From IMG/VR virus record IMGVR_UViG_3300024346_000004: a stretch of 64,000 bases of DNA. One strand, 5' to 3'. The translations under genes were made by a program, and so were the position numbers. Of this stretch, positions 16,377-54,497 are shown in pieces (the stretch's first letter is position 1; each line of letters begins with the position of its first letter). The notes under the pieces were generated by a model that worked only from the letters and a program-made list of their open reading frames with translations, was not told where the DNA came from and did not search any database. The stretch is from a virus. Lineage: Duplodnaviria > Caudoviricetes.

Positions 16377-16405
16377 AAAAACCCTCCATAAAGGAGGGTT
16401 TTTTT
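16377..16405. terminator. Bidirectional intrinsic terminator
   Basis: AAAAACCCTCC-ATAAA-GGAGGGTTTTTTT. Confidence 0.85.
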
Positions 16406-16637
16406 ATAACTTGTCTAATCCTAGATCATCATAAACTTCCCAAATTGGCCCAGCATTGTCTAATACTGTTTGATGCAATATAAAATAATCTTCCCAAGAA
16501 TTAAAAAACACATTTCCCATGCTGTCTATAATTTTTTCTTCATTCCGATATATATAATAGTCTTCAGGCCATCTTCTAGATCTAATTTTTAATCCTAAAT
16601 CTATCATTGGACGAGACATTTGACTAAATAATTTCAT
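16404..16637 (-). CDS. Divergent DUF2829/Tad2-like protein
   Basis: MKLFSQM..MIDLGLKIRSRRW..YYIY..WEVYD; GGGAG SD. Confidence 0.55.
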   Translation of the reverse strand: MKLFSQMSRPMIDLGLKIRSRRWPEDYYIYRNEEKIIDSMGNVFFNSWEDYFILHQTVLDNAGPIWEVYDDLGLDKL

Positions 16638-20790: not shown

Positions 20791-23304
20791 ATGTGGTATC
20801 AAAAAATAGTAGAAGCTGGTGCGTTAGATGAGTTGGCTGGTGGAATGGATACTAGTAAATCACCAGAAGATATATTATGGGAAATACGACATAATTATTC
20901 TATTTCAAAATTACCAAATTTTGAACATCTTTATAAATATCTTCTTGACTTGATTGACAACAAGTATACGAGTGATTATTTAACATCTGTTATAACACAC
21001 TTGATTTATATGTATTCGAAAGATGCTGAAACTGTACATAGAGCTAATAGATTAGTTCCGTTAATGATAAAGAATAATAAAATTTCTCAAAACGAAGAAA
21101 TGATGTTATTGCCTGACACTTTCTCACATATGGGTAGTACATTAGAGACACATAACACTGTATATAATTTCGGATATAATAAACTCTTAGCATACACAAA
21201 AGAAGGCATTGATCTTCCAAAGCGTGTTCGTATATATATAATGATGAATATGGACACACTATCTAGTTCAAGCATGCAACAGAGTGAAGCAAGAACAGAA
21301 ATTAAAAAATATATTACGGATAAAGATCCTATGTATGAATTTCTTAATGCTGATAAATATTCTGGAGAACAAATACTTAAAAATATTATTGATAACATAC
21401 AATCAGATGCTGGTAGGCAACTTTATTATGATGTTGTCCAATATTCTGGATTACCTATTGACGATTATTTATATTTATTAGATGAAGCTCACAATGAAAG
21501 AGTAATGGATGATCTACCCAAAGTTTATGATCTTTTAATAAATGATCAAAAATTTGATAAATATATAGAATATTTAGATAAAAATAAAAATAAATTTAGT
21601 CCAGAGCATTTTGAAAATAGATTCGTTGGTGCTTTCAAATACGGAATGACTTATTTTATGGGTGATTTTTGGTATGAAATATTTAAAAACAATAGACAAA
21701 TTATAAATGAAAAAATTTATCCTTCTTGTGAATATTATTACAAACCTTATTTACACAGATTAGGTGTTGGACCGAAAGAAGAAATAATCAAAGAATACAT
21801 AAAAGCTTCATTGGAAAATAAAGATTTAGCAAATAGGAAATTTAAAGAAATACCCACAAAAGAAGAAATTGATGCTTATGTGCAAAAAAACTCTGAAAAA
21901 CTTAATTCATATCAGTCTCAACGAGCTCAAAATACACAAACTCAAAATACAACACCACAAAGTGCTAATTCTCCTATACTCGATATATTTCAAAAAAATC
22001 TACAAAATGGATATATTGAAAAACATGATATTACTGGAGAATATGAAAAATTACTAAATGATATTCTAAATTCATTTGGATTCAATTCAGATGATCAAAA
22101 TATCATAAGTGATATTAAATCAAGATTAAAGATTTATGTATTTAAAAATTCTGAATTTTATAAAGATTTATTAAATACATCACTTCAAGAATATGGTTTT
22201 ATCACACCTACATTAATGAACTCTTGTGGATATTTTGTTCCTAGATTTTCGGATAACAATAATGGTCCTTCAATATTTATCAACGAATTTATATCTGAAG
22301 ACTATGTAAATAGTGACAATATTATTAACAATCTTGGAATAACCAAAGACATGATTAATATGTCTACAGCTGCTCATGAATTAGCCCATTTAGCAGATTA
22401 TGTTATCAAAGGCGGATCAGAAGTATTCAGTAATGTAGATCCTAAAACATCCTTAAAAGAAGGCGAAGCATACAATCAATCTAGATTGTATTTATCAGAC
22501 ATTAGAGAAATTGTTGCAAGAGTATATGGAAATACTTCTTATATGATTGAAATTCTGCATAAAAGAATTGAAGAAATGAGAACATCGGAAATCATTAGAA
22601 AAGCTGTTGTAGAAGAATTATCAGATATGCTGATGAGTAATGAAGCAAGCTGGTTGAATGCTACTCCTATGGTATCTGAACAAAAACTTCAAGAATGGGC
22701 AGAAAAAAGATTTGGACCTTATGAAAATTCTGAACAACCTTATACCCAAGCTACTGAAGATTACCTAAAACAAAAACAACTAGCAATTAAATTTTATGAA
22801 GAAGCTGGTAAGGTCAATCGAGAAGACATAAAAAAAGCTACTATCGAAGAAATACAATCATTAGAAGATCAAGCTGAAATATTAAAAACAAGAGTAAGTG
22901 AAGATAGCGAAGAATATAAAAAACTTCAAGAAGACATCAAAAAGTTAAAATTAAAAATCAGAAATATTGAAGCGGGTGCATTTGATCATGATATTTATAC
23001 TATCGTTAAATCTGTAGCGTCTTATATAGCATTTAAAGATATCAAAATAACTAATGAAATAGCTGCTGATCCTAATTATGTTTCTCCAATATCAATTAGA
23101 AAAGACCAGATGGCCGCAAATACAACGGGAGATACAACACCACTTTCAAATCAAGAACTTAAAACTATGAGAGATTTTGATTTAGGACAGGTCGCTCAAG
23201 GTACAGAAGGTGGTAAAACTTTAAAAGAACCTAAACCTTCATTTATGTCATATGATATCTATAATCCTAAATGGAGAGAAGAATATCCAGACACATTCAA
23301 ATAA
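20791..23304 (+). CDS. MWY-leader protein with a zincin metallopeptidase motif
   Basis: Starts MWYQKI; TAAHELAHLAD (HExxH) with a downstream E in REIVAR. Confidence 0.75.
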   Translation: MWYQKIVEAGALDELAGGMDTSKSPEDILWEIRHNYSISKLPNFEHLYKYLLDLIDNKYTSDYLTSVITHLIYMYSKDAETVHRANRLVPLMIKNNKISQNEEMMLLPDTFSHMGSTLETHNTVYNFGYNKLLAYTKEGIDLPKRVRIYIMMNMDTLSSSSMQQSEARTEIKKYITDKDPMYEFLNADKYSGEQILKNIIDNIQSDAGRQLYYDVVQYSGLPIDDYLYLLDEAHNERVMDDLPKVYDLLINDQKFDKYIEYLDKNKNKFSPEHFENRFVGAFKYGMTYFMGDFWYEIFKNNRQIINEKIYPSCEYYYKPYLHRLGVGPKEEIIKEYIKASLENKDLANRKFKEIPTKEEIDAYVQKNSEKLNSYQSQRAQNTQTQNTTPQSANSPILDIFQKNLQNGYIEKHDITGEYEKLLNDILNSFGFNSDDQNIISDIKSRLKIYVFKNSEFYKDLLNTSLQEYGFITPTLMNSCGYFVPRFSDNNNGPSIFINEFISEDYVNSDNIINNLGITKDMINMSTAAHELAHLADYVIKGGSEVFSNVDPKTSLKEGEAYNQSRLYLSDIREIVARVYGNTSYMIEILHKRIEEMRTSEIIRKAVVEELSDMLMSNEASWLNATPMVSEQKLQEWAEKRFGPYENSEQPYTQATEDYLKQKQLAIKFYEEAGKVNREDIKKATIEEIQSLEDQAEILKTRVSEDSEEYKKLQEDIKKLKLKIRNIEAGAFDHDIYTIVKSVASYIAFKDIKITNEIAADPNYVSPISIRKDQMAANTTGDTTPLSNQELKTMRDFDLGQVAQGTEGGKTLKEPKPSFMSYDIYNPKWREEYPDTFK

Positions 23305-23306
23305 AT

Positions 23307-23333
23307 AAAAGCCAGAGAATATTCTCTGGCTTT
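23307..23333. terminator. Bidirectional terminator
   Basis: Palindrome GCCAGAGAATATTCTCTGGC flanked by A and T runs. Confidence 0.8.
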
Positions 23334-23337
23334 CTTA

Positions 23338-23592
23338 TTATTCGTCAAATATTATCCAATCATCATTAACAATATCTTGAAGGTATGGACAATAAGCTTC
23401 AATACCATCCTGAAGATTGATTAAGAAAAATGTAGCATAATCAATCTCACTGGTATCTACAATAGTTTCATCAAATTCACCCTCATCATCTTGTTTTGTA
23501 TTACCTAAAGCAATCCAAGATACTTCATCCCAGCAAGTTCTACGAGCTTTGTATCCTTGCTTCAAATATTTAAGAGTCTGCACAAATTTCAT
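23338..23592 (-). CDS. DUF2829/Tad2-like protein
   Basis: MKFVQTLKYLKQGYKARRTCW..AYCPYLQDIVNDDWII. Confidence 0.8.
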   Translation of the reverse strand: MKFVQTLKYLKQGYKARRTCWDEVSWIALGNTKQDDEGEFDETIVDTSEIDYATFFLINLQDGIEAYCPYLQDIVNDDWIIFDE

Positions 23593-23660
23593 ATCTCACC
23601 TCTATGTATCTATTATATCATAGAAAGGTCATAAATGATTATATCTGTAAAAAAAGAACT

Positions 23661-24224
23661 ATGTGGTACAGATACGCAGCAATTACAATTAACAATAAAG
23701 AAATTCCAGAAGAAGATTTTTTTAATTCTTTTTCCAATGTTGCTTCTAATGAAAATGAACAACACTTCTGGATAGTAAATGGTGAGAAATATGCACCACC
23801 TAAAAATTATGGTCATCAACATACTTCAATGATGTTAAAATTAAAACATGGAATGATGCCAGGTGATGCAGATTTTGAAGAACATCCTATTGAATTTGTA
23901 GGGAGAGGCTTAGGACAATTTGCTCAAGGCGGAACAGTCAGAGTTACTAAAATGATAGATATGGCTGACATAACTATCTATGGCCCAACAAATGATCTCA
24001 CCCTAAATAATATTATAAAATTTGTTACTCCAGATTCAATCAACAAATGGGAAATATTAAATGTACCTAATAATCCGCATGGCAGAGGCTTTGATTCCTT
24101 AAAACAATCTATAAACAATCTCTCATTACAAAATACCACAAATGTAAAAGAAGATATTAATATTGCCCCTATACAAAGAGTTGATAATACACAATCTTTC
24201 TATAAAGGAAGATCAGGAGACTAA
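23661..24224 (+). CDS. MWY-leader hypothetical protein
   Basis: Start reassigned to MWYRYAA; AAAGG-N19-TAAAAA promoter at 23624-23653. Confidence 0.75.
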   Translation: MWYRYAAITINNKEIPEEDFFNSFSNVASNENEQHFWIVNGEKYAPPKNYGHQHTSMMLKLKHGMMPGDADFEEHPIEFVGRGLGQFAQGGTVRVTKMIDMADITIYGPTNDLTLNNIIKFVTPDSINKWEILNVPNNPHGRGFDSLKQSINNLSLQNTTNVKEDINIAPIQRVDNTQSFYKGRSGD

Positions 24225-24227
24225 GAT

Positions 24228-24926
24228 ATGTGGTACAGGACAGCAATTGATTTTGGAAAATTATTTGGTATTGAACAACCACAACAAACAAATACTCCTG
24301 AACCTATGGAAAAACCCGGAGTGCCTGATGATGTTTTTAGAGAAGTGGTGAGATCAAATATCCCTGATCCAGTAAATCAAATAGATCATTCCAAAGGCGA
24401 TTATCATTTAATTCTCACTGGAACTGGAGCTATTCATCAAGGTTCAAGCCATAGCAACTATATAGATAAAATATTAGATCAATCTCGTAAAAGTCTTCGT
24501 AATAATCCAGAAATATCAGAAAAATATAATATCAGAAACTTGCCAGACAAAGCTTATGGTCCAATGGATTATGCAGAAAGAATAAATTTTGATTCTGGAC
24601 CTGATCAACCTTTTTTAGCACAAGAAGATGCTGTCACTGAAATTCTACATGATTATTTTGACAAAGGTATAAGAATCAGTCACATGGGTTCAATGATGTC
24701 TGTAAATTCTGTACACGTTCCAACATATACACAAATGCAAAAGTTATTTGAAATTATTAATTTAATACAACCCGCAAATATAAGATTTAAAATTAATACT
24801 GGAAAAGGTTTGTTTGATAGAGTATATAATGTAAATAAAGTTGCTGATTTTAAAAATGACATTAAAGATTTTGAAATGAATAGAAAAAAAATACCATCTC
24901 TTATGAGTCAATGGAGAGATTATTAA
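24228..24926 (+). CDS. MWY-leader hypothetical protein
   Basis: Starts MWYRTA. Confidence 0.8.
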   Translation: MWYRTAIDFGKLFGIEQPQQTNTPEPMEKPGVPDDVFREVVRSNIPDPVNQIDHSKGDYHLILTGTGAIHQGSSHSNYIDKILDQSRKSLRNNPEISEKYNIRNLPDKAYGPMDYAERINFDSGPDQPFLAQEDAVTEILHDYFDKGIRISHMGSMMSVNSVHVPTYTQMQKLFEIINLIQPANIRFKINTGKGLFDRVYNVNKVADFKNDIKDFEMNRKKIPSLMSQWRDY

Positions 24927-24927
24927 T

Positions 24928-25287
24928 ATGTGGTATAGAATATCAGCAGACAATATAGATATCAAAAAAACATGGACAAAAACATCAAATAACCAAGAAT
25001 CAAATGAAGAATGGCTAGAAAGACATAAAGTAGATAGAGAAGGCGATAAATACGTTTTTTATCATGGCTCTAGATTAGACTTAGAAGAGCTTAGATCAGG
25101 CTCTTTATTAGCTACATCTCCACAAGAAGCTGAAGATTTTGGTAATACTAACTTTTGGAATGATAAAAGAAAAACATTCAAAGTATATAAAGTAGTAGTA
25201 AATGCGGATGAAATACACCCAGGATATTGGGCTAGTCTTGTAAATGATCATCCAGTAGAAATATTATATAAGAAAAGAAATATATAA
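24928..25287 (+). CDS. MWY-leader protein, ADP-ribosyltransferase-fold-like
   Basis: Starts MWYRISA; FYHGS..LLATSPQEAEDFG..VYKVVV resembles the ART strand motifs. Confidence 0.55.
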   Translation: MWYRISADNIDIKKTWTKTSNNQESNEEWLERHKVDREGDKYVFYHGSRLDLEELRSGSLLATSPQEAEDFGNTNFWNDKRKTFKVYKVVVNADEIHPGYWASLVNDHPVEILYKKRNI

Positions 25288-25288
25288 A

Positions 25289-25516
25289 ATGTGGTATTCA
25301 TTAGCTGCTAGAACTAAAACATATATCTACAATGAAGAAGAAAAAACATTGGCTGAACATTTAGAAGATATATTCCCTTATGCAAATTCGGTAGATATAT
25401 ATTATCTTAAATCAAATGTTCAAAAATTAGCTATGAATGATGAAGATGTAATTAGAATACTCAGAAAAGCAGATTACGGAGATATTTTTCCTACATATCA
25501 AAAAAGATGTAGATAG
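25289..25516 (+). CDS. MWY-leader small protein
   Basis: Starts MWYSLAA. Confidence 0.7.
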   Translation: MWYSLAARTKTYIYNEEEKTLAEHLEDIFPYANSVDIYYLKSNVQKLAMNDEDVIRILRKADYGDIFPTYQKRCR

Positions 25517-25519
25517 TAT

Positions 25520-25966
25520 TTACCACCAAAGTTCAAACCATAATTTAGAAAGATAGTCTACTGCTTTTCTAACATCATCAGTAAGTTGCTTTCTTTCTTC
25601 AATATCAGTAGATTCATAATATTTATTAGTAGTATAATAGTTTTCAAAAGCACTAATGATGAAATTTAGTTTTTCATTATAAGATTCTACTGTCTCACCA
25701 GTAGGGATACCATTATTAACTTCAATAAATCTCTTGAGTCTAGGAATAATAAATAATGCCATAGTGCGGTCAATATGCCACGTTTCAGTGTCGTCAAAAC
25801 CATTCTCAAATCTTTGTTGCTTGTACATTTCAAGTGTTGTAGGGTCCTTGCCATAACATTCTTCTGCAACACTGAAATTAATATTCTTAAGACCCTCTGG
25901 CTTTATAGATAATTGCAAGTAGTCTTTTGATTTCTTCAAGGTCGATTTTGATTTGTTTTCGCTCAT
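25520..25966 (-). CDS. Hypothetical phage protein
   Basis: GFDDTETWHIDRTMALFIIPRLKRF..FELWW pattern. Confidence 0.75.
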   Translation of the reverse strand: MSENKSKSTLKKSKDYLQLSIKPEGLKNINFSVAEECYGKDPTTLEMYKQQRFENGFDDTETWHIDRTMALFIIPRLKRFIEVNNGIPTGETVESYNEKLNFIISAFENYYTTNKYYESTDIEERKQLTDDVRKAVDYLSKLWFELWW

Positions 25967-26274
25967 CCAAGATCTTCCGCTTTTCTAAAATATGCTGATG
26001 CTGTACGAATAGCCCAAGCACATAATGCACCAAGAATAAAATCAGAAGTTAATCCACCAATCTTATTCCATGTAGAAATACCAATCATAATTCCACCAAC
26101 CATGAGAAGCCAGCCCATAGTACGTAGGTCATCGATTTTAGATTTTACTGTTTTTTCATGAACAACTAGCTTTTCAATTCTATCTTGTTCTTCAGGGGAT
26201 AACTGCAAAAAATCAGCTACAGAACCTACTTGAAATCCAGCTTCTTCTAATCGATTTTTCTTATCTTCATTCAT
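25963..26274 (-). CDS. Two-TM membrane protein with an antitoxin-like N-terminal peptide
   Basis: KKNRLEEAGFQVGSVADFLQLSPEE followed by two hydrophobic helices. Confidence 0.65.
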   Translation of the reverse strand: MNEDKKNRLEEAGFQVGSVADFLQLSPEEQDRIEKLVVHEKTVKSKIDDLRTMGWLLMVGGIMIGISTWNKIGGLTSDFILGALCAWAIRTASAYFRKAEDLG

Positions 26275-26677
26275 CTTCATTAGCCTCTTCAGAATCACCG
26301 TTAATAAAATCAATCAAATCTCCAGGAACCATATCCCACATTAGACCTTTTTCTTCAATCGTTTCTGTATCCCATTGGTCTAACTGGTCTAGCCAATCTG
26401 TATAGTCCTCATATTCTTCATCGAATTTTTCCTGAAGAGTATCAAAGTCTAATTGGAATTCTTTCTTGTAAAACTTCATAGCTTTATCAAAAATACCACA
26501 GTCAGAATCAATCTCCAAATAAGCATAACCCTCTTCGTTGAGAGTATCATTACTATTACCAAGATAAGAATATTCTGAAATAGCTTCGATAATATTAAGC
26601 TCGTTCAATAATTCTAAACTGACTTTCCAATAATCATGTCTATAGCAATCAATCGCCGGAATCGTAATCTTGCTCAT
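26267..26677 (-). CDS. Acidic hypothetical protein
   Basis: ISEYSY..AYLEIDSDCGIF motif; operonic. Confidence 0.7.
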   Translation of the reverse strand: MSKITIPAIDCYRHDYWKVSLELLNELNIIEAISEYSYLGNSNDTLNEEGYAYLEIDSDCGIFDKAMKFYKKEFQLDFDTLQEKFDEEYEDYTDWLDQLDQWDTETIEEKGLMWDMVPGDLIDFINGDSEEANEDE

Positions 26678-27102
26678 TAATCTTCCCATTTCTTTAGCAT
26701 ATCAATAATTACATGCTCAGGAACATTATGCGTTCTTTTTTGTCTTTCCGCAAGCTCTTTAATAAAATCATCTGAATAATTTGTAGGATCTAAAGTTTCA
26801 AATTTTACTTCATATCCTAATTCTTCAGCAGCATCAATATATTTTTCATATTGCCAACGCTGAACATTAGTATTATCGATTATTACAGGAGAAACACCAT
26901 CCTTCATAGATTGAATGGCTGCTTCTAAATTTTGCTGATGATAATCCTTAATTTTGTCAGGATTAAATTTGTATTCACCTGTATTTGGATCTGTTAAGAA
27001 AGAATCTGTAGAATGAATAACACCCTCTTCTAATAATTCTTTTGCTCTTGTTGATTTACCACTTCCAGGTAAACCTCTCATAATAATTAAAGTTTTATTC
27101 AT
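26677..27102 (-). CDS. P-loop kinase (AAA_33 / N4BP2-like polynucleotide kinase domain)
   Basis: LIIMRGLPGSGKST, STD, VIIDNTN, HNVP. Confidence 0.9.
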   Translation of the reverse strand: MNKTLIIMRGLPGSGKSTRAKELLEEGVIHSTDSFLTDPNTGEYKFNPDKIKDYHQQNLEAAIQSMKDGVSPVIIDNTNVQRWQYEKYIDAAEELGYEVKFETLDPTNYSDDFIKELAERQKRTHNVPEHVIIDMLKKWED

Positions 27103-27104
27103 AA

Positions 27105-27257
27105 TTATTCTTCTCTCTTTTTTGCCATTTTAACAAGCTTGATTATAATATTAACTAGTAAGGCAATTATTGCAACAGGTATTGCTAGCAAAACAATTAA
27201 AATAAAAGGTCCAAAAGGAATTATAAGCCAATGAGCAGTGTTAAGAAAATCTTCCAT
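27105..27257 (-). CDS. Small membrane protein (50 aa, below the ORF-track cutoff)
   Basis: MEDFLNTAHWLIIPFGPFILIVLLAIPVAIIALLVNIIIKLVKMAKKREE exactly fills the operon gap. Confidence 0.7.
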   Translation of the reverse strand: MEDFLNTAHWLIIPFGPFILIVLLAIPVAIIALLVNIIIKLVKMAKKREE

Positions 27258-27258
27258 A

Positions 27259-27471
27259 TTATTCGTCACTACATACTTTCTGTGGCTTGATTTCTAAACT
27301 ATAAGCCACTTTTTCTTCTTCAAAACAATATCTCAAAGCTTCAAGAAATTCTTTTCTATCATTGTAATAAAGGGATTGAAGCATCTTAACCATCTCTTCT
27401 TCTGGCACTTCTGAATCTTCATCAGCAGTAATATCAATATCAAAAGATAAGTTTAATCTGTACTTAGGCAT
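27259..27471 (-). CDS. Hypothetical protein
   Basis: Starts MPKYRL, overlapping the end of the upstream Tad2-like gene. Confidence 0.65.
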   Translation of the reverse strand: MPKYRLNLSFDIDITADEDSEVPEEEMVKMLQSLYYNDRKEFLEALRYCFEEEKVAYSLEIKPQKVCSDE

Positions 27472-27677
27472 TCTACTATTTCCCAATCATCACTCAAAAA
27501 TTCAGTAGCATCAACAACTTTACTAGTCCAAATAAGTCTTCCGCCAAAACCCCACCTTATTTCATTATGTTGATCTAAAACACCAAGCATCTGAAACAAA
27601 TACTCGCCTTTTTTCCAATGAATTCTTCGCACTTGATATCCTTTACGAATTGCTTTAAGTGCTTTTATTCCAGTCAT
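27453..27677 (-). CDS. DUF2829/Tad2-like protein
   Basis: MTGIKALKAIRKGYQVRRIHW..EFLSDDWEIVE. Confidence 0.8.
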   Translation of the reverse strand: MTGIKALKAIRKGYQVRRIHWKKGEYLFQMLGVLDQHNEIRWGFGGRLIWTSKVVDATEFLSDDWEIVECLSTD

Positions 27678-27952
27678 TCTACTATTTGCCAATCATCGTG
27701 TAAGAACTCACCCGCTTCTATCTTATCAAATAATCCAAAGAAATCATCAAAAGTAGTCTTAGTAAATGCAAAACTATTTTGAAATATTTTCTCTATTTCT
27801 TTATCTAAAATTTTATCATCCTGTACTTTTTCCAGATGTATAATCCATTTACCAAAGAAATCTAAGGCTTTACATTTTTCATGAGCTTCCCAGGATGTTC
27901 TTCTTAATGTTTTGCCATCTTTTAAAAGGGACAAAGCTTCGATTCCAGTCAT
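27674..27952 (-). CDS. DUF2829/Tad2-like protein
   Basis: MTGIEALSLLKDGKTLRRTSW..EFLHDDWQIVE. Confidence 0.8.
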   Translation of the reverse strand: MTGIEALSLLKDGKTLRRTSWEAHEKCKALDFFGKWIIHLEKVQDDKILDKEIEKIFQNSFAFTKTTFDDFFGLFDKIEAGEFLHDDWQIVE

Positions 27953-28167
27953 TCTACAACCTCCCAGAAGTCAGACATCAAATCTTTAGGAGTAAGATCT
28001 AGTGTTGAATAAAATTGTGTCCTACATACTTCTCCATCTAAGACTTCGTAGAAATCAAAAGTGTTATCTTCCTTGTCGTAGATTAAGAAAGCAGTAGTAC
28101 TTTCCCAATTGGTCTTACGCACACGCTTGCCAGACATTAATGAGTCAATGACATCAGCAAATTTCAT
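27949..28167 (-). CDS. DUF2829/Tad2-like protein
   Basis: MKFADVIDSLMSGKRVRKTNW..DLMSDFWEVVE. Confidence 0.8.
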   Translation of the reverse strand: MKFADVIDSLMSGKRVRKTNWESTTAFLIYDKEDNTFDFYEVLDGEVCRTQFYSTLDLTPKDLMSDFWEVVE

Positions 28168-28191
28168 TCTACTTCCTCCCAGTCCTGTCAT
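28164..28191 (-). pseudogene. Collapsed Tad2-like paralog (only the first and last codons remain)
   Basis: ATGACAGGACTGGGAGGAAGTAGAATGA reads MTGL in one frame and DWEEVE* in another. Confidence 0.6.
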
Positions 28192-28454
28192 TCTTCATCT
28201 ACCTTTTTGTTAGCGTCAACAATATGGTCTAAATCCCAAGTATCAATATCCCAATCTTCAGCAACAACATCACGGGGTTCTAAATCAAGACCGAATGTCC
28301 CTAATTCATAACCGTTTTCTGAATCATCTGCATAATATACATACACAAAAGAATCTTCTTCTTTGTCATAATACATATATTTGCCATTTTCCCAACCAGT
28401 GCGAGAAATTGGTTTACCTTCCATTAATGAATCAACTACTTCAGAGAATTTCAT
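28188..28454 (-). CDS. DUF2829/Tad2-like protein
   Basis: MKFSEVVDSLMEGKPISRTGW..DVVAEDWDI. Confidence 0.85.
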   Translation of the reverse strand: MKFSEVVDSLMEGKPISRTGWENGKYMYYDKEEDSFVYVYYADDSENGYELGTFGLDLEPRDVVAEDWDIDTWDLDHIVDANKKVDEE

Positions 28455-28669
28455 ATTAAAACATCCCAATCTTCAGCAATAATATCTTCTGGTTTTAAAT
28501 CAAGTCTATAGGTGATAAATTCGTAATCATCTTCTTCGTAATCTTCTTTGATATGATAAGCAAACCAATTTTGTTCTTTATCAAGATACAAAAATTTACC
28601 ATCAGGCCAAACGCTTCTCGATATTGGCTTGTATTGCATCAAAGAATCAATTACTTCAGAGAATTTCAT
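28451..28669 (-). CDS. DUF2829/Tad2-like protein
   Basis: MKFSEVIDSLMQYKPISRSVW..DIIAEDWDV. Confidence 0.85.
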   Translation of the reverse strand: MKFSEVIDSLMQYKPISRSVWPDGKFLYLDKEQNWFAYHIKEDYEEDDYEFITYRLDLKPEDIIAEDWDVLI

Positions 28670-28934
28670 CTACAACTTCCCAATCGTCTTCTAATAAATC
28701 CCCATTATCAATAACATCATAATAACTTACATAGCTGGAAAATTCAGGCTTTTCAGGAACCCATTGTGGAACTAAATGCGTGTCTAAAGCAAATAATATA
28801 GGGTCATCAATATTAATCTTAACAGACTTCATATCATCACTGAAATAAGCCTTACATTTTATATCAGGTTCCCAAGCTTTACGCCTAAGAATATATCCAG
28901 CTCGTAAAAGAGTTAATGCATCAGTTCCATTCAT
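28656..28934 (-). CDS. DUF2829/Tad2-like protein
   Basis: MNGTDALTLLRAGYILRRKAW..DLLEDDWEVVD. Confidence 0.8.
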   Translation of the reverse strand: MNGTDALTLLRAGYILRRKAWEPDIKCKAYFSDDMKSVKINIDDPILFALDTHLVPQWVPEKPEFSSYVSYYDVIDNGDLLEDDWEVVDEIL

Positions 28935-29154
28935 TTTTATTTTTTGTAACAGGCTCAAAACTATAAGAAGCATTAGGATCAAGAATCAATACATCTGCTG
29001 TAACCCAATTAGCCTCGATCAGATTCTCACCAAAAAAACAAGTCTCAAGCTTTTCGTCTAAGATTCTCCACTTAGAAATTCCATTATCATGTTTTTGAAC
29101 GACGATAAACCCCATTTTCAATTTATATGTAACATCAAAAGAAATATTAAACAT
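28921..29154 (-). CDS. Hypothetical protein inside the Tad2-like array, possibly a very divergent member
   Basis: KLKMGFIVV matches only the N-terminal half-pattern. Confidence 0.55.
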   Translation of the reverse strand: MFNISFDVTYKLKMGFIVVQKHDNGISKWRILDEKLETCFFGENLIEANWVTADVLILDPNASYSFEPVTKNKNEWN

Positions 29155-29403
29155 CTAATCCACTAGCTCCCATTCATTTTCAAATATATCACGCAAGAAT
29201 TCTTCTATAATTTCTTGATTATGTAAGTTAGTCCAAGGTGTAGAAGGATTCAAATTTGGAACCCTTGGAAACTCTTCTGACCTAACTGAAAAAGCATATC
29301 CAGAATAATCAGAATAATACAAATACCAATCCTTATTTTCCCAAGCTTTACATCTGATTTTACATCCTTTTTTAATAAATTGCAATGCTTCTAAACCATT
29401 CAT
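29155..29403 (-). CDS. DUF2829/Tad2-like protein
   Basis: MNGLEALQFIKKGCKIRCKAW..DIFENEWELVD. Confidence 0.8.
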   Translation of the reverse strand: MNGLEALQFIKKGCKIRCKAWENKDWYLYYSDYSGYAFSVRSEEFPRVPNLNPSTPWTNLHNQEIIEEFLRDIFENEWELVD

Positions 29404-29660
29404 TGATTTATATAATTCTCAATATTACCTTTGATATCTTTATCCCACAAATAACAAGCATCAAAGCCAAATTCACTATCTTCAAATGTCACCCAAATAA
29501 AATCACCTTTAGGATCAAGACGTACAGATTTAAAATCACCAAAATTTAATTCATCACATACAATTTTAGCAATAGATTCCATATACTTTTGAAACTTAAG
29601 ATAACTGTAAATTCTTCCACGGACAAAATCCTCAGAATAAATAAATTGTTCAGTACTCAT
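29400..29660 (-). CDS. Hypothetical protein
   Basis: 86 aa ORF overlapping both neighbours. Confidence 0.65.
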   Translation of the reverse strand: MSTEQFIYSEDFVRGRIYSYLKFQKYMESIAKIVCDELNFGDFKSVRLDPKGDFIWVTFEDSEFGFDACYLWDKDIKGNIENYINQ

Positions 29661-30348
29661 TTCTATCTTTCATAATCTGATCTTGCATTTCATCAACTTC
29701 AGCTACAACATCAACAACTTCCCAATCGTCTGCTAACAAATCTTCATATTTTATCATTAGTGAATTTGTATACATTCCAATACCCAAGTCAGAATGCCAA
29801 CTCTTACGTCTAATTGTTTTTCCAGCATACATATCATCTAATACATCCTTGAATGTTTTAAAATGAAAAATCTCCCAATCCTCAGCGAATAAATCTTCAG
29901 CAGTGATTTTAACATTAGAATTATCATAGTTATCAGGAGGAAATAAATAAATCTTTGGATTGCCTTCTCTTGTAACGATCTTCCCATGTTTAAGCATATC
30001 AAGAGCCCAATTAATATCTCTTTTCAACCTAATATCATTCTCTTCAGCAAAAGTATCAAAATCACTACCAACGAACTTATTATTAAATTTATTCTTAGGC
30101 ATAGGTAAAATCTTCCAATTATTATAGTTCTTCCAATGATCAAACCTTACAGGAATCAAAAAATCTTGTGTATTTAAATCGTACAGGTAGAAATCTTTAA
30201 ATTTACAAGCGATTACAGAGGATGAATGATTATCTTCACCAAAAGCAAAATATCTTCCAGAGAGTAGAATTCTTTTAGCTTCTTCAAAAGTAAAATTTCT
30301 TCCCTTATAATCTATCTCATTTAAATAACCAAAATATTTCTTTGACAT
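29650..30348 (-). CDS. Tandem multi-domain DUF2829/Tad2-like protein (two clear units and one degenerate)
   Basis: FTFEEAKRILLSG..NWKIL / INWALDMLKHGKIVTR..DLFAEDWEIF / FKDVLDDMYAGKTIRRKSW..DLLADDWEVV. Confidence 0.8.
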   Translation of the reverse strand: MSKKYFGYLNEIDYKGRNFTFEEAKRILLSGRYFAFGEDNHSSSVIACKFKDFYLYDLNTQDFLIPVRFDHWKNYNNWKILPMPKNKFNNKFVGSDFDTFAEENDIRLKRDINWALDMLKHGKIVTREGNPKIYLFPPDNYDNSNVKITAEDLFAEDWEIFHFKTFKDVLDDMYAGKTIRRKSWHSDLGIGMYTNSLMIKYEDLLADDWEVVDVVAEVDEMQDQIMKDRNEY

Positions 30349-30407
30349 TTAAGCCTCATAACATTCTACCACAAAAAAATAAAGGCCTGATTTCTCAAGC
30401 CTTTTTT

Positions 30408-30653
30408 TCACATATTCTTTTTAGCTTCTTGGAGAGCTTCAATAAGTAGATCAAGTTCTTCTTTATCTAAAACAACTAAATCTGAATAAGCAAATCCATC
30501 AAAAAGAATTTTCAATCTTTTCTTCCAATTTAACTTGCCATCATTGAAACCATAATTCCAAAGAGAAATGTCTACAGTTTTGGATTCTGTATCAGGACGT
30601 ATATGTAAAGAATGACATAAACAGTCACAATTAATAATAGTAGTTTTATCCAC
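30408..30653 (-). CDS. Small hypothetical protein with a CxCxxH motif
   Basis: INCDCLCH..NWKKRLK. Confidence 0.7.
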   Translation of the reverse strand: MDKTTIINCDCLCHSLHIRPDTESKTVDISLWNYGFNDGKLNWKKRLKILFDGFAYSDLVVLDKEELDLLIEALQEAKKNM

Positions 30654-31236
30654 TTGTATATCCTATGTTTAACCTACGAATAAGATGAGTGAATCTATAA
30701 TTAAGCACAAGATGATAAAGAAAATAAGCACGTCTACCTAATGAAAAAGCACGGAATTCTTCTTGTGTTTTAAATACCTGAGTTCCATCCTCATATTGAC
30801 TAGGAACTCTAATACCCTCTTTAGCCCAATCTTTCTGCTTATTAAATCTTTTTTCAATTACAGATAAAAGAAACTCCCATTCTTCTTGAGTATATCGTTT
30901 TTCTTTTGGCTCTAAAAACTCATCAAATTCAATCTTCTTGTGAGAAAATGAACTTCTATGAATTACTACATAAATTTCTTGTTTGTTAGCTTTTTCTACA
31001 GGAGGTAAACTAAGATTAAAACCAACATACTTGGATACACAATACTCAGGAGCAGAATGATTTTTTACTCTCATTTGACCTGTTACTAAATCTACTACCT
31101 GATCGATACAATAATGATCATGGAATTCAGGAACAGCATCAGAATCTGTTTCAATCGATTCTACAAATTTAAACTCAGATTTAAACTTTTCTGTACTAGG
31201 AACATATCGCCAAAAAGAATGCCTAAACTTTGACAT
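30646..31236 (-). CDS. Hypothetical protein
   Basis: GGAG SD before MSKFRH. Confidence 0.7.
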   Translation of the reverse strand: MSKFRHSFWRYVPSTEKFKSEFKFVESIETDSDAVPEFHDHYCIDQVVDLVTGQMRVKNHSAPEYCVSKYVGFNLSLPPVEKANKQEIYVVIHRSSFSHKKIEFDEFLEPKEKRYTQEEWEFLLSVIEKRFNKQKDWAKEGIRVPSQYEDGTQVFKTQEEFRAFSLGRRAYFLYHLVLNYRFTHLIRRLNIGYTSG

Positions 31237-31766
31237 TAAATCATCTCCAAAGAATAGGAACAAAGAGAAGACCAATAACTAAGAGCTTTTTCCAAATTAC
31301 TAAGATCAACTTCTTCATCCTTGTACTTCCATAACATTGCTTGAAATACACAATGAAAAGAAAGGTTAAATAAATCTTCCTGGGCTTTTTCAGATAAATC
31401 CCAATAATAAACTGAATGAGGTGGTTTAATCTCTTCAATTAAACAAGACATAAGAATAGCATAATTAGCCAAATCAATTACTGTATCTTCAGCCTTTTCA
31501 GAAATAACCAAATATTCTTTTTCTTTGAGGAAATTTTCAAGGCGGGACATCTTATCACCAATTCTAACTAAACATCCTCGCCAAGCATCAATACCAGCAT
31601 CCTCACACTTGCGCAAATTACCCATAGGAAGACCAGTAGCAGAATAATCATTATCCTTAGCCTCATAAACACTCTGCATGTTATCAAGAATATCTAAAGC
31701 TGTTTCATTAGTAAATTTAGCTTTCATATTACTTATTGTTTGATCATAAAATTTATTTCTTGACAT
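31236..31766 (-). CDS. DUF1599 / nucleotide-modification-associated domain 1 protein
   Basis: AKDNDYS..NL..RIGDKMSRL..DTVIDLANYAIL. Confidence 0.85.
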   Translation of the reverse strand: MSRNKFYDQTISNMKAKFTNETALDILDNMQSVYEAKDNDYSATGLPMGNLRKCEDAGIDAWRGCLVRIGDKMSRLENFLKEKEYLVISEKAEDTVIDLANYAILMSCLIEEIKPPHSVYYWDLSEKAQEDLFNLSFHCVFQAMLWKYKDEEVDLSNLEKALSYWSSLCSYSLEMI

Positions 31767-32220
31767 CTAATACCTCAATACTGTCTGCAAATTGTATCAT
31801 GCACTTTTGAATTTTATCTAATCCCACTTTACCTTGAGAAAAATAAAGATGCCAACTAATAACACAATAAATATCGTCTTCAACACCTTGCGAAATTCCA
31901 TACCAAAATCCATTACTATATATAGGGAACTTTAAATTAGCTTCTTTAGGGAATGAAAGATGAATTATATAAAATAATCTATCTAAATATTTCTTATCTA
32001 CAATGAAAGTAAAATAAGGGATTGAACCTTTTTCTCTTCCTAATAAATGACCCTGACAACTCCAAATAGTCCAAAGCCAACCACTACTATTAATCTTATA
32101 AATAGAATCTTTAATCTTTGGATCTAATTTTACTCTTTGTTTTTTAAGAGATCTAGGATCATACTTCGATGGATGATCTATGTAATTTAAAAAACTAGTT
32201 AAGTTGTCAGGGTTATTCAT
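31753..32220 (-). CDS. TYW3-like fold protein (paralog of 42572..43045)
   Basis: LDPKI..IN..WT..SCQGH..PY. Confidence 0.6.
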   Translation of the reverse strand: MNNPDNLTSFLNYIDHPSKYDPRSLKKQRVKLDPKIKDSIYKINSSGWLWTIWSCQGHLLGREKGSIPYFTFIVDKKYLDRLFYIIHLSFPKEANLKFPIYSNGFWYGISQGVEDDIYCVISWHLYFSQGKVGLDKIQKCMIQFADSIEVLDVKK

Positions 32221-32221
32221 G

Positions 32222-33202
32222 TTATCTCTTAGGTGGTAATGAATTTTGCTTTACTTCAAAAACACCATTACCAACAAAATCACCAAGCGTTTTATATCCA
32301 CTGTACGAAACTGCTGAAGATAGCCCACCCCAAAGCTCATCTACAAGAACTTCAAGAGGACGCAATTCATCAACAATAGCTACTTCTTTACCCTCAGAAT
32401 GACGATATACTTTACCAGTGGAGAGAATCTGTTGCTTATGAGATGCACCACCCCAATAGTTTCCGTCTCCTCTTAAATGAGTTTCTGCTTCAAACGCTCT
32501 AGCAAAATACCCACCCATCATAACATAATCCGCTCCAGCACCAAATGCCTTAGCAGCATATCCAGCATTCTTAATACCACCGTCAGCAATTACAAATGGA
32601 CCTGAATCATAAGTATATTCTTCAATTTCCATGATTTCAGTAATTGGACCACGATTGTATCCAGTAGAATCATTAGTAGCACAAGGACTTCCACCAGCAA
32701 TACCTACACGAATATATTTATCATGCTTGGAATTTAATTTAATTTTTGAAAGCAACTCAAATCCAAGAGCTGAATGAACATTACCCAACATTAAATCATA
32801 CACTGGAGCAATCTGTTCTAGCTTTTCAGTACATTCAGTAATTTCTTTGTGCATATAACCATTAGCCATATCAATTAGCCATTTATCAGCACCACAATCT
32901 TTTAATGCCTTGACCCTATCCCAATCATTCAAACCGATAGATACAAATACATTAGCTTTATTAGGTAAAGAATTATAAAGCTCAACCTGCTCCTCAATAG
33001 AACAAAAACGATGAAGACAAACTGTAAGACCAAGCTCATTAGCCTTTAGAGCAAATGTTTTACCAACAATAGCTTCCATAGGAGAAACTATGATTCTATT
33101 TAACTCTACAGGAATATCTTTACGAGACTTAACTTTACAAGGTTGAGCTACAAGATTTACATCATTATAATAAATAGACTTAGACTTGAGAATTTCTGCC
33201 AT
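32222..33202 (-). CDS. guaC: GMP reductase / IMPDH family protein
   Basis: IDMANGY, GNV, RVGIAGGSPCAT, IADGGI, GADYVMMG; no CBS domains. Confidence 0.85.
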   Translation of the reverse strand: MAEILKSKSIYYNDVNLVAQPCKVKSRKDIPVELNRIIVSPMEAIVGKTFALKANELGLTVCLHRFCSIEEQVELYNSLPNKANVFVSIGLNDWDRVKALKDCGADKWLIDMANGYMHKEITECTEKLEQIAPVYDLMLGNVHSALGFELLSKIKLNSKHDKYIRVGIAGGSPCATNDSTGYNRGPITEIMEIEEYTYDSGPFVIADGGIKNAGYAAKAFGAGADYVMMGGYFARAFEAETHLRGDGNYWGGASHKQQILSTGKVYRHSEGKEVAIVDELRPLEVLVDELWGGLSSAVSYSGYKTLGDFVGNGVFEVKQNSLPPKR

Positions 33203-33779
33203 TTTTCTTACTTTCAATTACACAATCAATAACACCATACGTTTTGGCTTCTTCCGCACTCATGTAATAATCTCTATCACAGTCTTTAGCAATCTGCTTC
33301 TTCGTTTTACCAGTGGAGAGAGAAAGAATATCGAATAATTGATCTTCCAACTTATTTGTCTCATTAACCTGAATACGAATGTCAGCAGATGTACCACGAA
33401 AACCAGAAGATACCTGATGAATCATAATACGAGAATGAGGCAAAGCAGATCGAGTACCAGTACCACCAGCTAAAAGAATAGCTCCCATACTAGCTGCCAT
33501 ACCTACACAAGTGGTATTAACAGGAGCAGAAATTGTATTAATAACATCATACAAAGCTAATCCCGCACTAACACTACCACCAGGACTATTAATATAAAAC
33601 TCAATCGGTCTATGACTATCTTCCTTGTCTAAAAATAACATCTGAGCGATAATCAAATTAATAATATAATCATCTACCTCTTGCCCTAAAAAGATAATTC
33701 GGTCTTTAAGTAATCTAGACCAAATATCATAAGCACGTTCACCGGTAGATGATTTTTCTAATACTGTAGGAATAATCAT
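33180..33779 (-). CDS. clpP: ATP-dependent Clp protease proteolytic subunit
   Basis: DIWSRLLKDRIIFL, INSPGG, GMAASMG, IMIHQ, DRDYYMSAEEA. Confidence 0.97.
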   Translation of the reverse strand: MIIPTVLEKSSTGERAYDIWSRLLKDRIIFLGQEVDDYIINLIIAQMLFLDKEDSHRPIEFYINSPGGSVSAGLALYDVINTISAPVNTTCVGMAASMGAILLAGGTGTRSALPHSRIMIHQVSSGFRGTSADIRIQVNETNKLEDQLFDILSLSTGKTKKQIAKDCDRDYYMSAEEAKTYGVIDCVIESKKNGRNSQV

Positions 33780-33848
33780 AAACCTATTTTACCACACACA
33801 AAAAAAGAGAGGCATAAAATACCTCTCTTCCTTAAGTAAAATTATGAT

Positions 33849-34340
33849 TTACTTAATTTTAATTTTCTTTACTGTTTCTTTAAGCTCTTCTTCTTTAAAA
33901 ACAATCTTCTTAAAAGCTAATTTAAGAATACCAGCTTCTAAATGACAAACTTCAGGGTCAAGCTCAAGATTGTCTGGTAATTGAATTGTTCTTGTAAAAG
34001 CAGATTGCTTCAATTCTTTAAGATGATAGAAATAACTCTTCTCTCTAAGGATTCTTGAATTTCCAGTGATTGTTAAAAGCTTAGTTTCTTTGACAACTTC
34101 AATGTCAAGATCTTTTTCTTCAACACCGGGTACAGCAAAGTCCAAACAGAAATAAGAATCATCTTCAAAGATATCCATTTTTGGATAAGAAGTGTTGGAA
34201 TGAATAAAGTTTTTACGATTACCTAAAAAATCGTCAAAAAACTTGTTGATAATCTGTTCATGTTGATCCATGATCACATTACGATTGGGCATTAAAATTC
34301 TACGCTGAGGTAGATTCAATACATCATCAATACTAGCCAT
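33849..34340 (-). CDS. Small heat-shock protein (Hsp20/alpha-crystallin)
   Basis: YPKMDI..AVPG..FTRTIQLP..GILKL; GGAG SD before MASID. Confidence 0.9.
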   Translation of the reverse strand: MASIDDVLNLPQRRILMPNRNVIMDQHEQIINKFFDDFLGNRKNFIHSNTSYPKMDIFEDDSYFCLDFAVPGVEEKDLDIEVVKETKLLTITGNSRILREKSYFYHLKELKQSAFTRTIQLPDNLELDPEVCHLEAGILKLAFKKIVFKEEELKETVKKIKIK

Positions 34341-34445
34341 ATAATTCTCCATTTGCGCCCATAAGGTACGCTCTAAAATAGGTGTCTAAAAGATCACCTT
34401 GGTTAATAACCTATATATATAATACAACAAATAACAAGATTTTAT

Positions 34446-34709
34446 TCACCAAGAACCCAAATGCTTAGTAATTACACCATCAGGATTTCTACTAATACTC
34501 GCAACCCACTCACTACCATCAAACACCATAGGAAAATAAACCCTACCCTTAGTCCAAAGAGTAAATGGCTCTCCCTCAATAGAACCATATGTATCATCAA
34601 ATAAATAATCTAACCACTTACCATCATCTGGAACATAACTAACTACATCTTCCCATTTCTCATTATATTCAGACATACAATAAACTATCAAATCTCTCCA
34701 TCTAACCAT
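34446..34709 (-). CDS. Hypothetical phage protein
   Basis: FDDTYGSIEGEPFTLWT..VYFP..DGSEWVASISRNP. Confidence 0.75.
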   Translation of the reverse strand: MVRWRDLIVYCMSEYNEKWEDVVSYVPDDGKWLDYLFDDTYGSIEGEPFTLWTKGRVYFPMVFDGSEWVASISRNPDGVITKHLGSW

Positions 34710-45453: not shown

Positions 45454-46350
45454 ATGAACCTCTCCTTGTGTTGTATATCTAATGTCTTGGCTGAACAGGG
45501 ATATAAATTCCGCACCATGACATATAAATCTTTTTCTTCCAAACCGAGAGAGGAATCATTAGAAAAGTTATCTTCTATAATAAGTAATAATTTTTCTGTT
45601 GCTGAGAAGATAGTAAAGCATTGTTCTTCTTCTGGTATTAAAGGTTATCGTTTGTCTTCTGATTTATGTCCAGTAATTAAGCATCCTGATGTTATGTTAA
45701 ATTTAGAAGATTTGCCTAACTATGGATTTATTAAGTATGAGATAGATAAATTAAAAAGAACTATTAAAGAAACAGGTATTCGTGTTTCTGCTCATCCATC
45801 AGAATATATTACTCTTACTTCTGATGACCCTGTGAAAGTAAATCATTCTATTGTTGATTTGGAATTTCATGGGGAGATATTTGATAGATTAGAATTATCC
45901 CAAACGTATTATAATCCACTTAATATCCATGTACGAAAAGAAGGCGAAGCAGATGCATTAGCCAAAACATTCATGGATAATTATAATAAGTTATCTGACA
46001 GTGTAAAGAATAGACTTGTATTAGAAAATAATGATACAGGTAATACTTGGACTGTTGCTAATCTAAAGAAATATTTTTATTCTTCTCACGGTATTCCAGT
46101 AACATTTGATAATTTACATCACGAAATGTTAAATCATGGAACATCTTATTATGATGCTTTTTATGATGCTCTTTCTACTTGGACAGTTCAGCCTTTATTC
46201 CATTACAGTGAAGGAAAGAACGGTACAAGAGCGCACAAGGATATGGCGGAGCATTTACCTACACATTATGATGAAGATGTAATGTTTGATGTAGAGCTTA
46301 AGAGTAAAGACTATGCTATACTGGATATGTTGAGGAAAAACAATGGATAA
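45454..46350 (+). CDS. uvsE: UV DNA damage endonuclease (UvdE/UvsE)
   Basis: LCCI, YRLSSDL, RVSAHPSEY, RLVLENND, FDNLHH, HYSE, RAHKD, ELKSKD. Confidence 0.93.
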   Translation: MNLSLCCISNVLAEQGYKFRTMTYKSFSSKPREESLEKLSSIISNNFSVAEKIVKHCSSSGIKGYRLSSDLCPVIKHPDVMLNLEDLPNYGFIKYEIDKLKRTIKETGIRVSAHPSEYITLTSDDPVKVNHSIVDLEFHGEIFDRLELSQTYYNPLNIHVRKEGEADALAKTFMDNYNKLSDSVKNRLVLENNDTGNTWTVANLKKYFYSSHGIPVTFDNLHHEMLNHGTSYYDAFYDALSTWTVQPLFHYSEGKNGTRAHKDMAEHLPTHYDEDVMFDVELKSKDYAILDMLRKNNG

Positions 46351-46564
46351 AGTAATCTCGCAGTTAAAATCTTTTGATATCGTAAATAAGAATGAAGGTT
46401 TACAGACACAATCTATTTCATTCAGAGACAAAGATAATAATCTCCATATGATGATTCGAAATAGGATGACTTTTGATTCCTGTTCTCTTTATAGCAATGT
46501 GGATGGTGAGAATGTTAATATTGTAATTCCTAGAATCCATTTTGACACATATTGGAATTTCTAA
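46343..46564 (+). CDS. Hypothetical protein
   Basis: Overlaps the uvsE stop; GAGG SD. Confidence 0.6.
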   Translation: MDKVISQLKSFDIVNKNEGLQTQSISFRDKDNNLHMMIRNRMTFDSCSLYSNVDGENVNIVIPRIHFDTYWNF

Positions 46565-54388: not shown

Positions 54389-54394
54389 TGGTTT

Positions 54395-54467: not shown

Positions 54468-54497
54468 TTGTTTGATTAAATTCTTTGGGAGATTAAA

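Follow-up and report, generated by a model that had tools for sequence, protein, structure and literature searches.

A 64,000-nucleotide stretch of DNA from an uncultured jumbo phage (IMG/VR virus record IMGVR_UViG_3300024346_000004; hereafter the window) carries an array of small, diverged genes of the Tad2 family, whose founding member, SPO1 Tad2, is the Thoeris anti-defence 2 sponge. Ten open reading frames (ORFs) lie back to back on the minus strand between positions 27453 and 30348, and eight of them match Pfam family PF11195 (Tad2-like, formerly DUF2829). These genes belong to the Tad2 family and share its fold; they are old, conserved paralogs that are gained and lost between related phages, and the canonical ligand pocket of Tad2 has been lost from them. 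We put at roughly one half the probability that they form a lineage-conserved operon of diverged PF11195 proteins that works as a battery of oligomeric small-molecule sponges, each paralog with ligands of its own. Within that reading we infer the oligomeric state, the binding of ligands and a role against host defences.

How firmly do these genes belong to PF11195? A scan of the whole record with the family profile finds ten genes, every one within the window; two of them, at 23338 and 57557, lie outside the array. Matches in the array extend across the whole 73-position profile at 24.6–42.3 bits (E 1e-10 to 4e-5), the gathering cut-off being 25 bits. The matching array genes comprise seven single-domain proteins of 72–92 amino acids (aa) and a head gene whose 232-aa product has three units, and with the two dispersed copies they make ten Tad2-like genes and 12 domains. 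Six genes score above the cut-off (the head fusion, 57557, 23338, 28188, 28451 and 27674, named here by their first coordinate). Leave-one-out profiles, built from the remaining copies, regain 11 of the 12 units (E 4e-6 to 7e-14; Z = 1602 genome ORFs), and the mutual homology of the copies is therefore not circular. The genes are listed below with their PF11195 scores, leave-one-out E-values and, where orthologs in related loci (L-numbered) allow it, the ratio of nonsynonymous to synonymous substitution rates (dN/dS).

29650–30348, minus strand: head gene of the array, a 232-aa single chain (42.3 bits) with three Tad2-like units at about aa 16–84, 108–163 and 162–215 and a C-terminal helix at 214–231.
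29155–29403, minus strand: Tad2-like paralog, MNG subtype, 82 aa (24.9 bits, E 3e-5; leave-one-out E 4e-7), with orthologs in L028 and L033.
28656–28934, minus strand: Tad2-like paralog, MNG subtype, 92 aa (24.7 bits; leave-one-out E 1.5e-11; dN/dS 0.15); its start is set at the ATG at 28934, and a longer TTG ORF extends to 28982.
28451–28669, minus strand: Tad2-like paralog, MKF subtype, 72 aa (29.1 bits; dN/dS 0.27–0.32), the copy chosen for modelling.
28188–28454, minus strand: Tad2-like paralog, MKF subtype, 88 aa, its C-terminal tail acidic (32.2 bits; leave-one-out E 7.5e-14; dN/dS 0.38–0.61).
27949–28167, minus strand: Tad2-like paralog, MKF subtype, 72 aa (24.6 bits; leave-one-out E 1.7e-11), with orthologs at 82–86% identity (dN/dS 0.20–0.25).
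27674–27952, minus strand: Tad2-like paralog, MTG subtype, 92 aa, whose middle carries a long insert (25.5 bits; leave-one-out E 3.9e-12; dN/dS 0.15).
27453–27677, minus strand: Tad2-like paralog, MTG subtype, 74 aa, the last gene of the array (24.7 bits; leave-one-out E 5.6e-10), with an ortholog in L028.
23338–23592, minus strand: dispersed Tad2-like paralog, 84 aa (36.1 bits), with orthologs in L017 and L019 (dN/dS 0.07–0.15).
57557–57775, plus strand: dispersed Tad2-like copy, 72 aa (38.3 bits), the most canonical of the set by residue mapping.

A first-pass annotation of the sequence had already proposed eight Tad2/DUF2829-like genes in the array, and the profile check bears this out. The two subtypes that it distinguished (beginning MKF and M[TN]G) and the termini that it described as common to the copies are visible in the alignments as well: an N-terminal G-x-x-h-R-x-x-W and a C-terminal D-h-h-x-D-D-W-E-h-h recur across paralogs that share 18–54% pairwise identity. 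Against its tally of about 11 genes and 12–13 domains stand ten genes and 12 domains here; of the three dispersed copies it had named, 23338 and 57557 match PF11195 and the third is doubtful and is not counted:

16404–16637, minus strand: doubtful, very diverged candidate copy, 77 aa from an internal ATG, with indirect support from an N-terminal motif match and from its orthologs.

This candidate has no Pfam match and reaches E 3.2 with a purpose-built paralog hidden Markov model (HMM), and hhalign aligns it on the N-terminal motif only (E 0.0019, probability 14%). Its orthologs in L017 and L019 match the N-terminal half of the paralog profile at about 1e-5 and the Pfam profile at 6.6e-5 and 8.6e-4, and PF11195 is found in 10% of the members of the third Atlas cluster.

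Structure comparison points the same way as the profiles. Against the Protein Data Bank (PDB), the paralog profile finds Tad2 chains only: SPO1 gp34.65 (E 9e-9), ModTad2 (1e-7), HgmTad2/AcrIIA7 (2e-5) and SptTad2 (6e-4). The 28451 copy was modelled with AlphaFold2 on 124 homologs (predicted local distance difference test, pLDDT, 78.7), and in a Foldseek search of the PDB the top 24 matches of this model are all Tad2, with a template-modelling score of 0.75 and a root-mean-square deviation of 1.9–2.4 Å, the matches that follow having E > 3. Membership in the family and the Tad2 fold are secure. In the head gene, units 2 and 3 (about 50 aa each) were detected by sequence, through the leave-one-out HMM, and unit 1 was recovered by structure alone: its AlphaFold2 model has a VIA Z of 8.2 to SptTad2 (8wjd) and 7.9 to SPO1 Tad2 (8wje_A), and comparisons with SptTad2, SPO1 Tad2 and ModTad2 give Z 6.8–8.2 over 62–66 residues, against 3.7 for the best unrelated chain. 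This fusion gene has at least 247 metagenomic homologs, anchors the array in 16 IMG/VR loci and stands at the head of the Tad2-like genes in at least 15 related viral contigs.

Do the array proteins associate with themselves, as Tad2 does? A four-copy model of the 28451 protein scored 0.43 against 0.00 for the best control; its runs agree in at least 50% of contacts, and the partner pLDDT is at least 76. A score of 0.43 is reached by 20 of 30 solved same-chain pairs and by one of 23 solved single chains, in a calibration that used two copies and not four. The predicted interface is made by an N-terminal helix (residues 3–11) and by residues 55–64, among them the conserved Asp. Tad2 tetramers have been solved and the model may remember them, so that the four-copy result may be likeness more than proof. 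For the 28451 copy, self-association of some stoichiometry is predicted above controls.

What has become of the ligand pocket? SPO1 Tad2 holds glycocyclic ADP-ribose (gcADPR) by W25, N26, W73 and D79, with contributions from T78, S76, H71, D67, I63 and T65 (10.1101/2023.05.01.538930), and HgmTad2 uses the same WN and W..S.TD elements (W21/N22 and W87..S90/T92/D93; 10.1101/2023.11.15.567273). We aligned the 12 units to SPO1 Tad2, taken from the SPO1 genome record, and use SPO1 numbering throughout. W25 is retained in 10 of the 12 units, D79 (as D or E) in all 12, and the C-terminal Trp is invariant. N26, by contrast with W25, is found solely in 57557; no unit has W73 (a Y stands there in 57557 and fusion unit 1, and L, I, K, D or V in the others), and S76 and T78 are not conserved. 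None of the 12 units carries the canonical gcADPR pocket (W25-N26(-G) plus W73-x-x-S76-x-T78-D79), and the motif W-x-[PA]-[ST]-x-[ST]-D occurs in 0 of 120 retrieved metagenomic homologs and in 0 of 51 single-domain members of the clade. The loss of the WNG and W-x-P-S-Q-x-D segments, noticed in the first reading of the sequence, is confirmed by this alignment. On these residues, the array proteins are an atypical branch of the Tad2 family. The 57557 copy is near-canonical, keeping W25, N26, H71, an aromatic residue at 73 (Y73) and D79, and it alone looks able to keep a gcADPR-like site. For the other copies a ligand different from that of SPO1 Tad2 is a reasonable expectation, because the canonical gcADPR segments are absent. 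The variable middle of the paralogs aligns with the beta2–beta5 insertion that binds cyclic dinucleotides in HgmTad2 and SptTad2 (10.1101/2023.11.15.567273).

How old is the array, and how stable is it among relatives? The 12 kb that include it (window 22001–34500) are 100% identical in five metagenome assemblies from JGI and ENA (L006–L010); the array itself is 100% identical across the near-identical contigs L006–L013, from which dN/dS is uninformative; and most of it is present in at least 15 sequencing studies, whose samples are lake, freshwater or "marine"-labelled. This identity over assemblies and studies implies a very widespread, clonal phage population. More distant relatives include a 380,750-bp NCBI metagenomic contig and IMG/VR records of 261 kb and 22.7 kb, the latter two with 9 and 11 PF11195 matches. 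With the fusion gene as anchor, the 16 IMG/VR loci hold 1–8 Tad2-like genes within 8 kb, compared with 9 in an equal span of the window. Clustering at 50% identity yields two nearly universal orthogroups, one of the 28188/28451 type and one of the 28656 type (OG2, present in 11 of 15 loci), and eleven patchy ones. For each array gene of the window, at least one relative has an ortholog. Two core orthogroups, many accessory ones and a variable copy number together make a pattern typical of arms-race gene families.

Every paralog with an ortholog is under purifying selection. Ortholog pairs have dN/dS of 0.07–0.61 (rough figures, given short genes and saturation of some dS values), and orthologs are kept across lineages separated by dS of 0.3 to more than 1. 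The middles, which the first-pass annotation had called hypervariable, do vary between paralogs but are conserved between orthologs: taken alone they have dN/dS mostly of 0.08–0.25, and the 28188 type alone is relaxed, at about 0.6. These comparisons indicate that the middles are old and paralog-specific and are not undergoing continued diversification, and that the array is not a recent burst and instead consists of old, diverged paralogs held by purifying selection. The diversified panel of Tad2-fold genes envisaged at the outset is upheld by the PF11195 matches, by the fold matches in the PDB and by purifying selection on old paralogs.

Gene gain and loss have left traces within the array as well. 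Between the 28188 and 27949 genes lies a short spacer, read from the sequence:

About 28168–28191, minus strand: 20-nt spacer, the footprint of a collapsed MTG-type paralog.

Over 28164–28191, ATG-ACA-GGA-CTG encodes MTGL, the start of the MTG subtype, and another frame reads QDWEEVE followed by a stop that overlaps the next ATG. In a lake-water contig, four genes are swapped for about 300 other bases. From the collapsed-paralog footprint and this four-gene strain variant it follows that turnover is ongoing. In a further contig, k141_390727 from ENA (L012:1–8294, against window 25963–33779), the block from a 196-aa gene through the array to a 103-aa gene is 100% identical to the window, and the adjoining ClpP, IMP dehydrogenase (IMPDH)-like and 155-aa genes have just 78–82% nucleotide identity (dS 0.6–1.1). 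Either the array block has recently recombined between diverged phages, or the assembly is chimeric.

How might such an array work? Each product has the Tad2 fold: a helix at the N-terminus packs on a small antiparallel sheet, and a D-h-h-x-D-D-W-E-h-h strand lies at the C-terminus. If the products are sponges, each would most likely self-assemble into an oligomer, like Tad2. The conserved ends would supply the core, the helix that packs the tetramer and two residues of the pocket, namely the Trp that follows R-x-x and the Asp that precedes the last strand. The paralog-specific middle would match the insertion region by which characterised Tad2 proteins select their ligands. Early in infection the sponges would sequester host immune signalling nucleotides of different kinds; 57557 would at most be the one copy still suited to gcADPR-like ligands, and the remaining copies would bind other ligands.

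Several observations weigh against this sponge reading, and some of them fit other uses of the fold. Four genes fall slightly under the PF11195 cut-off (29155 at 24.9 bits, 27453 and 28656 at 24.7 and 27949 at 24.6). The residues N26, W73, S76 and T78 that hold gcADPR are gone from nearly all copies, which makes the paralogs atypical, because only about 1% of Tad2 proteins are estimated to be without a functional gcADPR site (Li et al., 10.1101/2023.11.15.567273). In fusion units 2 and 3 the middle is missing altogether, and they cannot form the canonical pocket. Loss of the ligand pocket in almost all copies, and fusion units pared down to 50 aa without the pocket-forming middle, would also be in keeping with a protein-binding scaffold, in which each paralog inhibits or decoys a different host protein (a defence effector, a sensor or some other) by contact. 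Most copies are strongly acidic (isoelectric point, pI, 4.0–5.0; net charge down to −17), as are many phage protein inhibitors and DNA mimics, but SPO1 Tad2 is likewise acidic (pI 4.9). Moreover, of 84 sponge homologs put to the test, 19 had no inhibitory effect on any of seven systems (Hadary et al., 10.1101/2025.08.24.671296). On the other side, no PF11195 member is known to work by protein contact. The array profile is related in sequence to chains 8kbi and 9kzr (E 2e-5 and 6e-4). The reported anti-Cas9 activity of AcrIIA7 (HgmTad2) was not reproduced (Li et al., 10.1101/2023.11.15.567273). In solved Tad2 complexes, moreover, the invariant Trp and Asp belong to the pocket. We regard protein binding as an unlikely explanation, though one to be taken seriously.

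The ligands could also be ordinary nucleotides, cellular or phage-made, such as c-di-GMP, (p)ppGpp and NAD- or GMP-derived compounds, with the paralogs tuning host physiology or phage nucleotide metabolism. The array does sit amid nucleotide-metabolism genes (an AAA_33 kinase, DUF1599 and an IMPDH/GMP-reductase-like gene), but neighbourhood is weak evidence in a jumbo phage, and patchy gain and loss among close relatives suits conflict genes better than metabolic ones. Similarly, c-di-GMP co-purifies with HgmTad2 and SptTad2, but in Bacteroides this ligand of HgmTad2 serves as a CBASS signal (10.1101/2023.11.15.567273). A housekeeping role of this kind seems to us quite improbable. Nor do the copies look like mostly decaying or neutral duplicates devoid of individual function. 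The low identity between paralogs, the collapsed-paralog remnant and the differences in copy number between relatives might be read so; however, all copies are intact ORFs, orthologs are retained over dS of 0.3 to more than 1 with dN/dS of 0.07–0.6, gene order is maintained and almost all relatives have the two core orthogroups. Selection and orthology largely rule out decay, to which we give very little credence.

How does the array compare with Tad2 systems that are already known? SPO1 Tad2 (gp34.65; PDB 8SME/8SMF/8SMG and 8WJE) belongs to the same Pfam family and has the same fold; it resembles the paralogs in size (89 aa, against 72–92 aa here) and in acidity, with self-association predicted for the 28451 copy, and it has in common with them the N-terminal helix, R-x-x-W (W25), D79 and the C-terminal strand (E-D-W-D-I-V in SPO1). 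It differs in that its five-residue W-V-P-S-Q segment is deleted in the comparison with the paralog profile, and in that SPO1 has one copy where there are ten genes here. HgmTad2 (AcrIIA7) and SptTad2 (PDB 8KBI–8KBM, 8WJC and 8WJD), matched by the same paralog profile, have a beta2–beta5 insertion that makes a second pocket with its own specificity (10.1101/2023.11.15.567273). Whereas these two proteins have a canonical gcADPR site and a long, defined insertion domain, the middles of the paralogs are short and unrelated, and fusion units 2 and 3 have none.

Published work gives the Tad2 fold a broad range of ligands, including cyclic GMP-AMP and c-di-GMP (through the beta2–beta5 insertion), cyclic UMP (cUMP) and cyclic CMP, and Tad2 homologs cover the signals of CBASS, Pycsar and Thoeris I, II and IV (Hadary et al., 10.1101/2025.08.24.671296). 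One fold can accommodate different signals: MoTad2/ModTad2 (PDB 9EIB and 8V3E), which is among the top fold matches of the 28451 model, binds histidine-linked ADP-ribose (His-ADPR) and cUMP in separate pockets, and Tad2_71 binds the N7- and 3' forms of cyclic ADP-ribose (N7-cADPR and 3'cADPR; 10.1101/2025.08.24.671296). Each of these is a single multi-specific protein, in contrast to the many paralogs here, each of them possibly specialised; defences based on decoy molecules select for specific over broad sponges (Hadary et al., 10.1101/2025.08.24.671296).

Is a set of this kind found elsewhere? The single-copy state that the first-pass annotation ascribed to known Tad2 is the rule, with exceptions. 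A tblastn search with SPO1 Tad2 matched 428 of 50,697 cultured phage records at 453 places in all, a ratio from which single copies follow as the norm; the multi-copy exceptions include Bacillus phage vB_BthS-TP21T, with five matches, and phi4J1, with three places. The N4-like Klebsiella phage KP8 has a single PF11195 match. In TP21T (MK843319.1, 52 kb), a multi-copy case that has gone unremarked, a tandem pair of canonical Tad2 genes has an inverted second copy (46135–46634 and 49936–50435), and a fifth gene lies at 4466–4732. TP21T and phi4J1 resemble the present phage in having more than one PF11195 gene, partly in tandem. The TP21T copies, however, are canonical (68–90 bits) with only three distinct sequences, and there is neither a diverged ten-gene set nor a multi-unit fusion. 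Searches of the 50,697 INPHARED phages by blastn with the array and by tblastn with two paralogs gave no match, so that the copies are visible to profiles only. We found no published account of Tad2/DUF2829 paralog arrays, in a literature coverage that is incomplete. At E ≤ 1e-3, an exhaustive profile search of 1.84 billion representatives returned 2,402 cluster representatives; of the 149 best, 69 have two or more Tad2-like units per chain (typically 115–145 aa, and one of 711 aa with four), and just 13 have the canonical W-x-P-S-x-T-D motif. Multi-unit "mini Tad2-like" proteins are thus, by these profile matches, common and uncharacterised. What has not been described is the ten-gene, twelve-domain array with its three-unit fusion, degenerate canonical pocket and clade-wide gain and loss; the family and the fold were already known.

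The layout of the array suggests an operon. Its genes abut or overlap by 4–19 nt and are probably co-transcribed and translationally coupled. At the junctions from 27453 to 29403 (minus strand), the D-W-E codons at the gene ends place TGGGA(A/G) about 10 nt before the following ATG, and the conserved C-terminal motif may, to judge from this spacing, also serve as ribosome-binding site for the gene that comes next. Just upstream of the head gene is a pattern that may mark the start of a separate transcription unit:

30381–30404, minus strand: terminator-like hairpin with a 10-bp stem and a T-run, a pattern match only, from a consensus scan.

In metatranscriptome X20, short contigs (151–344 nt, about 99% identical) cover parts of the array, which is no proof of transcription, because contigs from RNA libraries can come from DNA; in X22 and X23 the match is confined to a 32-nt conserved piece of ClpP. 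The order of the module is kept in relatives: g81, the fusion gene, g86, a mixture of Tad2-like single-domain genes and g77-family genes, then g70, g54 and the AAA_33 kinase. Two genes interleaved with the Tad2-like ones belong to this module:

29400–29660, minus strand: 86-aa gene, not Tad2-like by sequence, coming after the fusion gene in almost every relative, with orthologs of 34–47% identity beside the fusion in 14 related loci.
28921–29154, minus strand: 77-aa gene, not Tad2-like by sequence, of a second small family that is multi-copy in relatives.

Both ORFs were considered as cryptic Tad2-like genes and rejected, having no Pfam match and being negative in hhalign comparison with the Tad2-like set; the 86-aa ORF has no PHROG match and nothing in the Atlas either. 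The 86-aa gene looks like a fixed partner of the three-unit fusion. By blastp the 77-aa family has 1–3 copies per related locus at 27–75% identity (L037, L028 and L035), and, being multi-copy in relatives, it constitutes a second diversifying family interleaved with the Tad2-like genes.

The window spans bases 84646–148645 of a 165,921-bp record that CheckV rates as about 46% complete, and its G+C content is about 31%. Contigs of related phages extend up to 358–381 kb, which identifies the source as a jumbo phage with a genome of roughly 360 kb; this uncultured phage is from fresh or estuarine water. A PHROGs search of ten large proteins of the record offered, as its sole taxonomic anchors, a RecD/Dda-like helicase and head-decoration-like domains. 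The array is flanked, on the same minus strand, by an AAA_33 P-loop kinase gene (26677–27102) and by DUF1599 (nucleotide-modification-associated; 31236–31766), and further minus-strand neighbours encode an IMPDH/GMP-reductase-like protein (32222–33217) and, at 33180–33779 and 33849–34352, ClpP and an HSP20-like protein. Transfer RNA genes for Leu(taa), Lys(ttt), Met(cat), Asn(gtt) and Arg(tct) lie at window positions 54307–54468, 57126–57203 and 63154–63225 and at L005:614–687; the 57557 copy is 350 nt downstream of tRNA-Met.

What would such an array mean? A bolder proposal, which we put forward tentatively and hold to be possible rather than probable, is that abundant aquatic jumbo phages of one clade maintain mini Tad2 sponges as a pangenome-like magazine, with two core types, many accessory ones and a three-unit single chain, each tuned to a different immune signal and several of those signals undiscovered; paralogs with the same N-terminal helix might even mix into hetero-oligomers with hybrid pockets. 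Sponges have led to new immune signals before, Tad1 to isomers of cyclic ADP-ribose and MoTad2 to His-ADPR (Hadary et al., 10.1101/2025.08.24.671296), and if this proposal is true the array would be a set of ready-made affinity reagents for finding new bacterial immune signals. Ten conserved Tad2-fold paralogs from one phage, lacking the known pocket, amount to ten candidate binders of new ligands, and their gain and loss among related phages is a natural experiment that could tie the repertoire to host defence. The analysis also defines a large, uncharacterised "mini Tad2-like" subfamily that lies outside the Tad2 proteins studied by experiment to date. Should the array proteins prove not to be sponges, they would reveal a second use for a fold that is now treated as diagnostic of signal sequestration.

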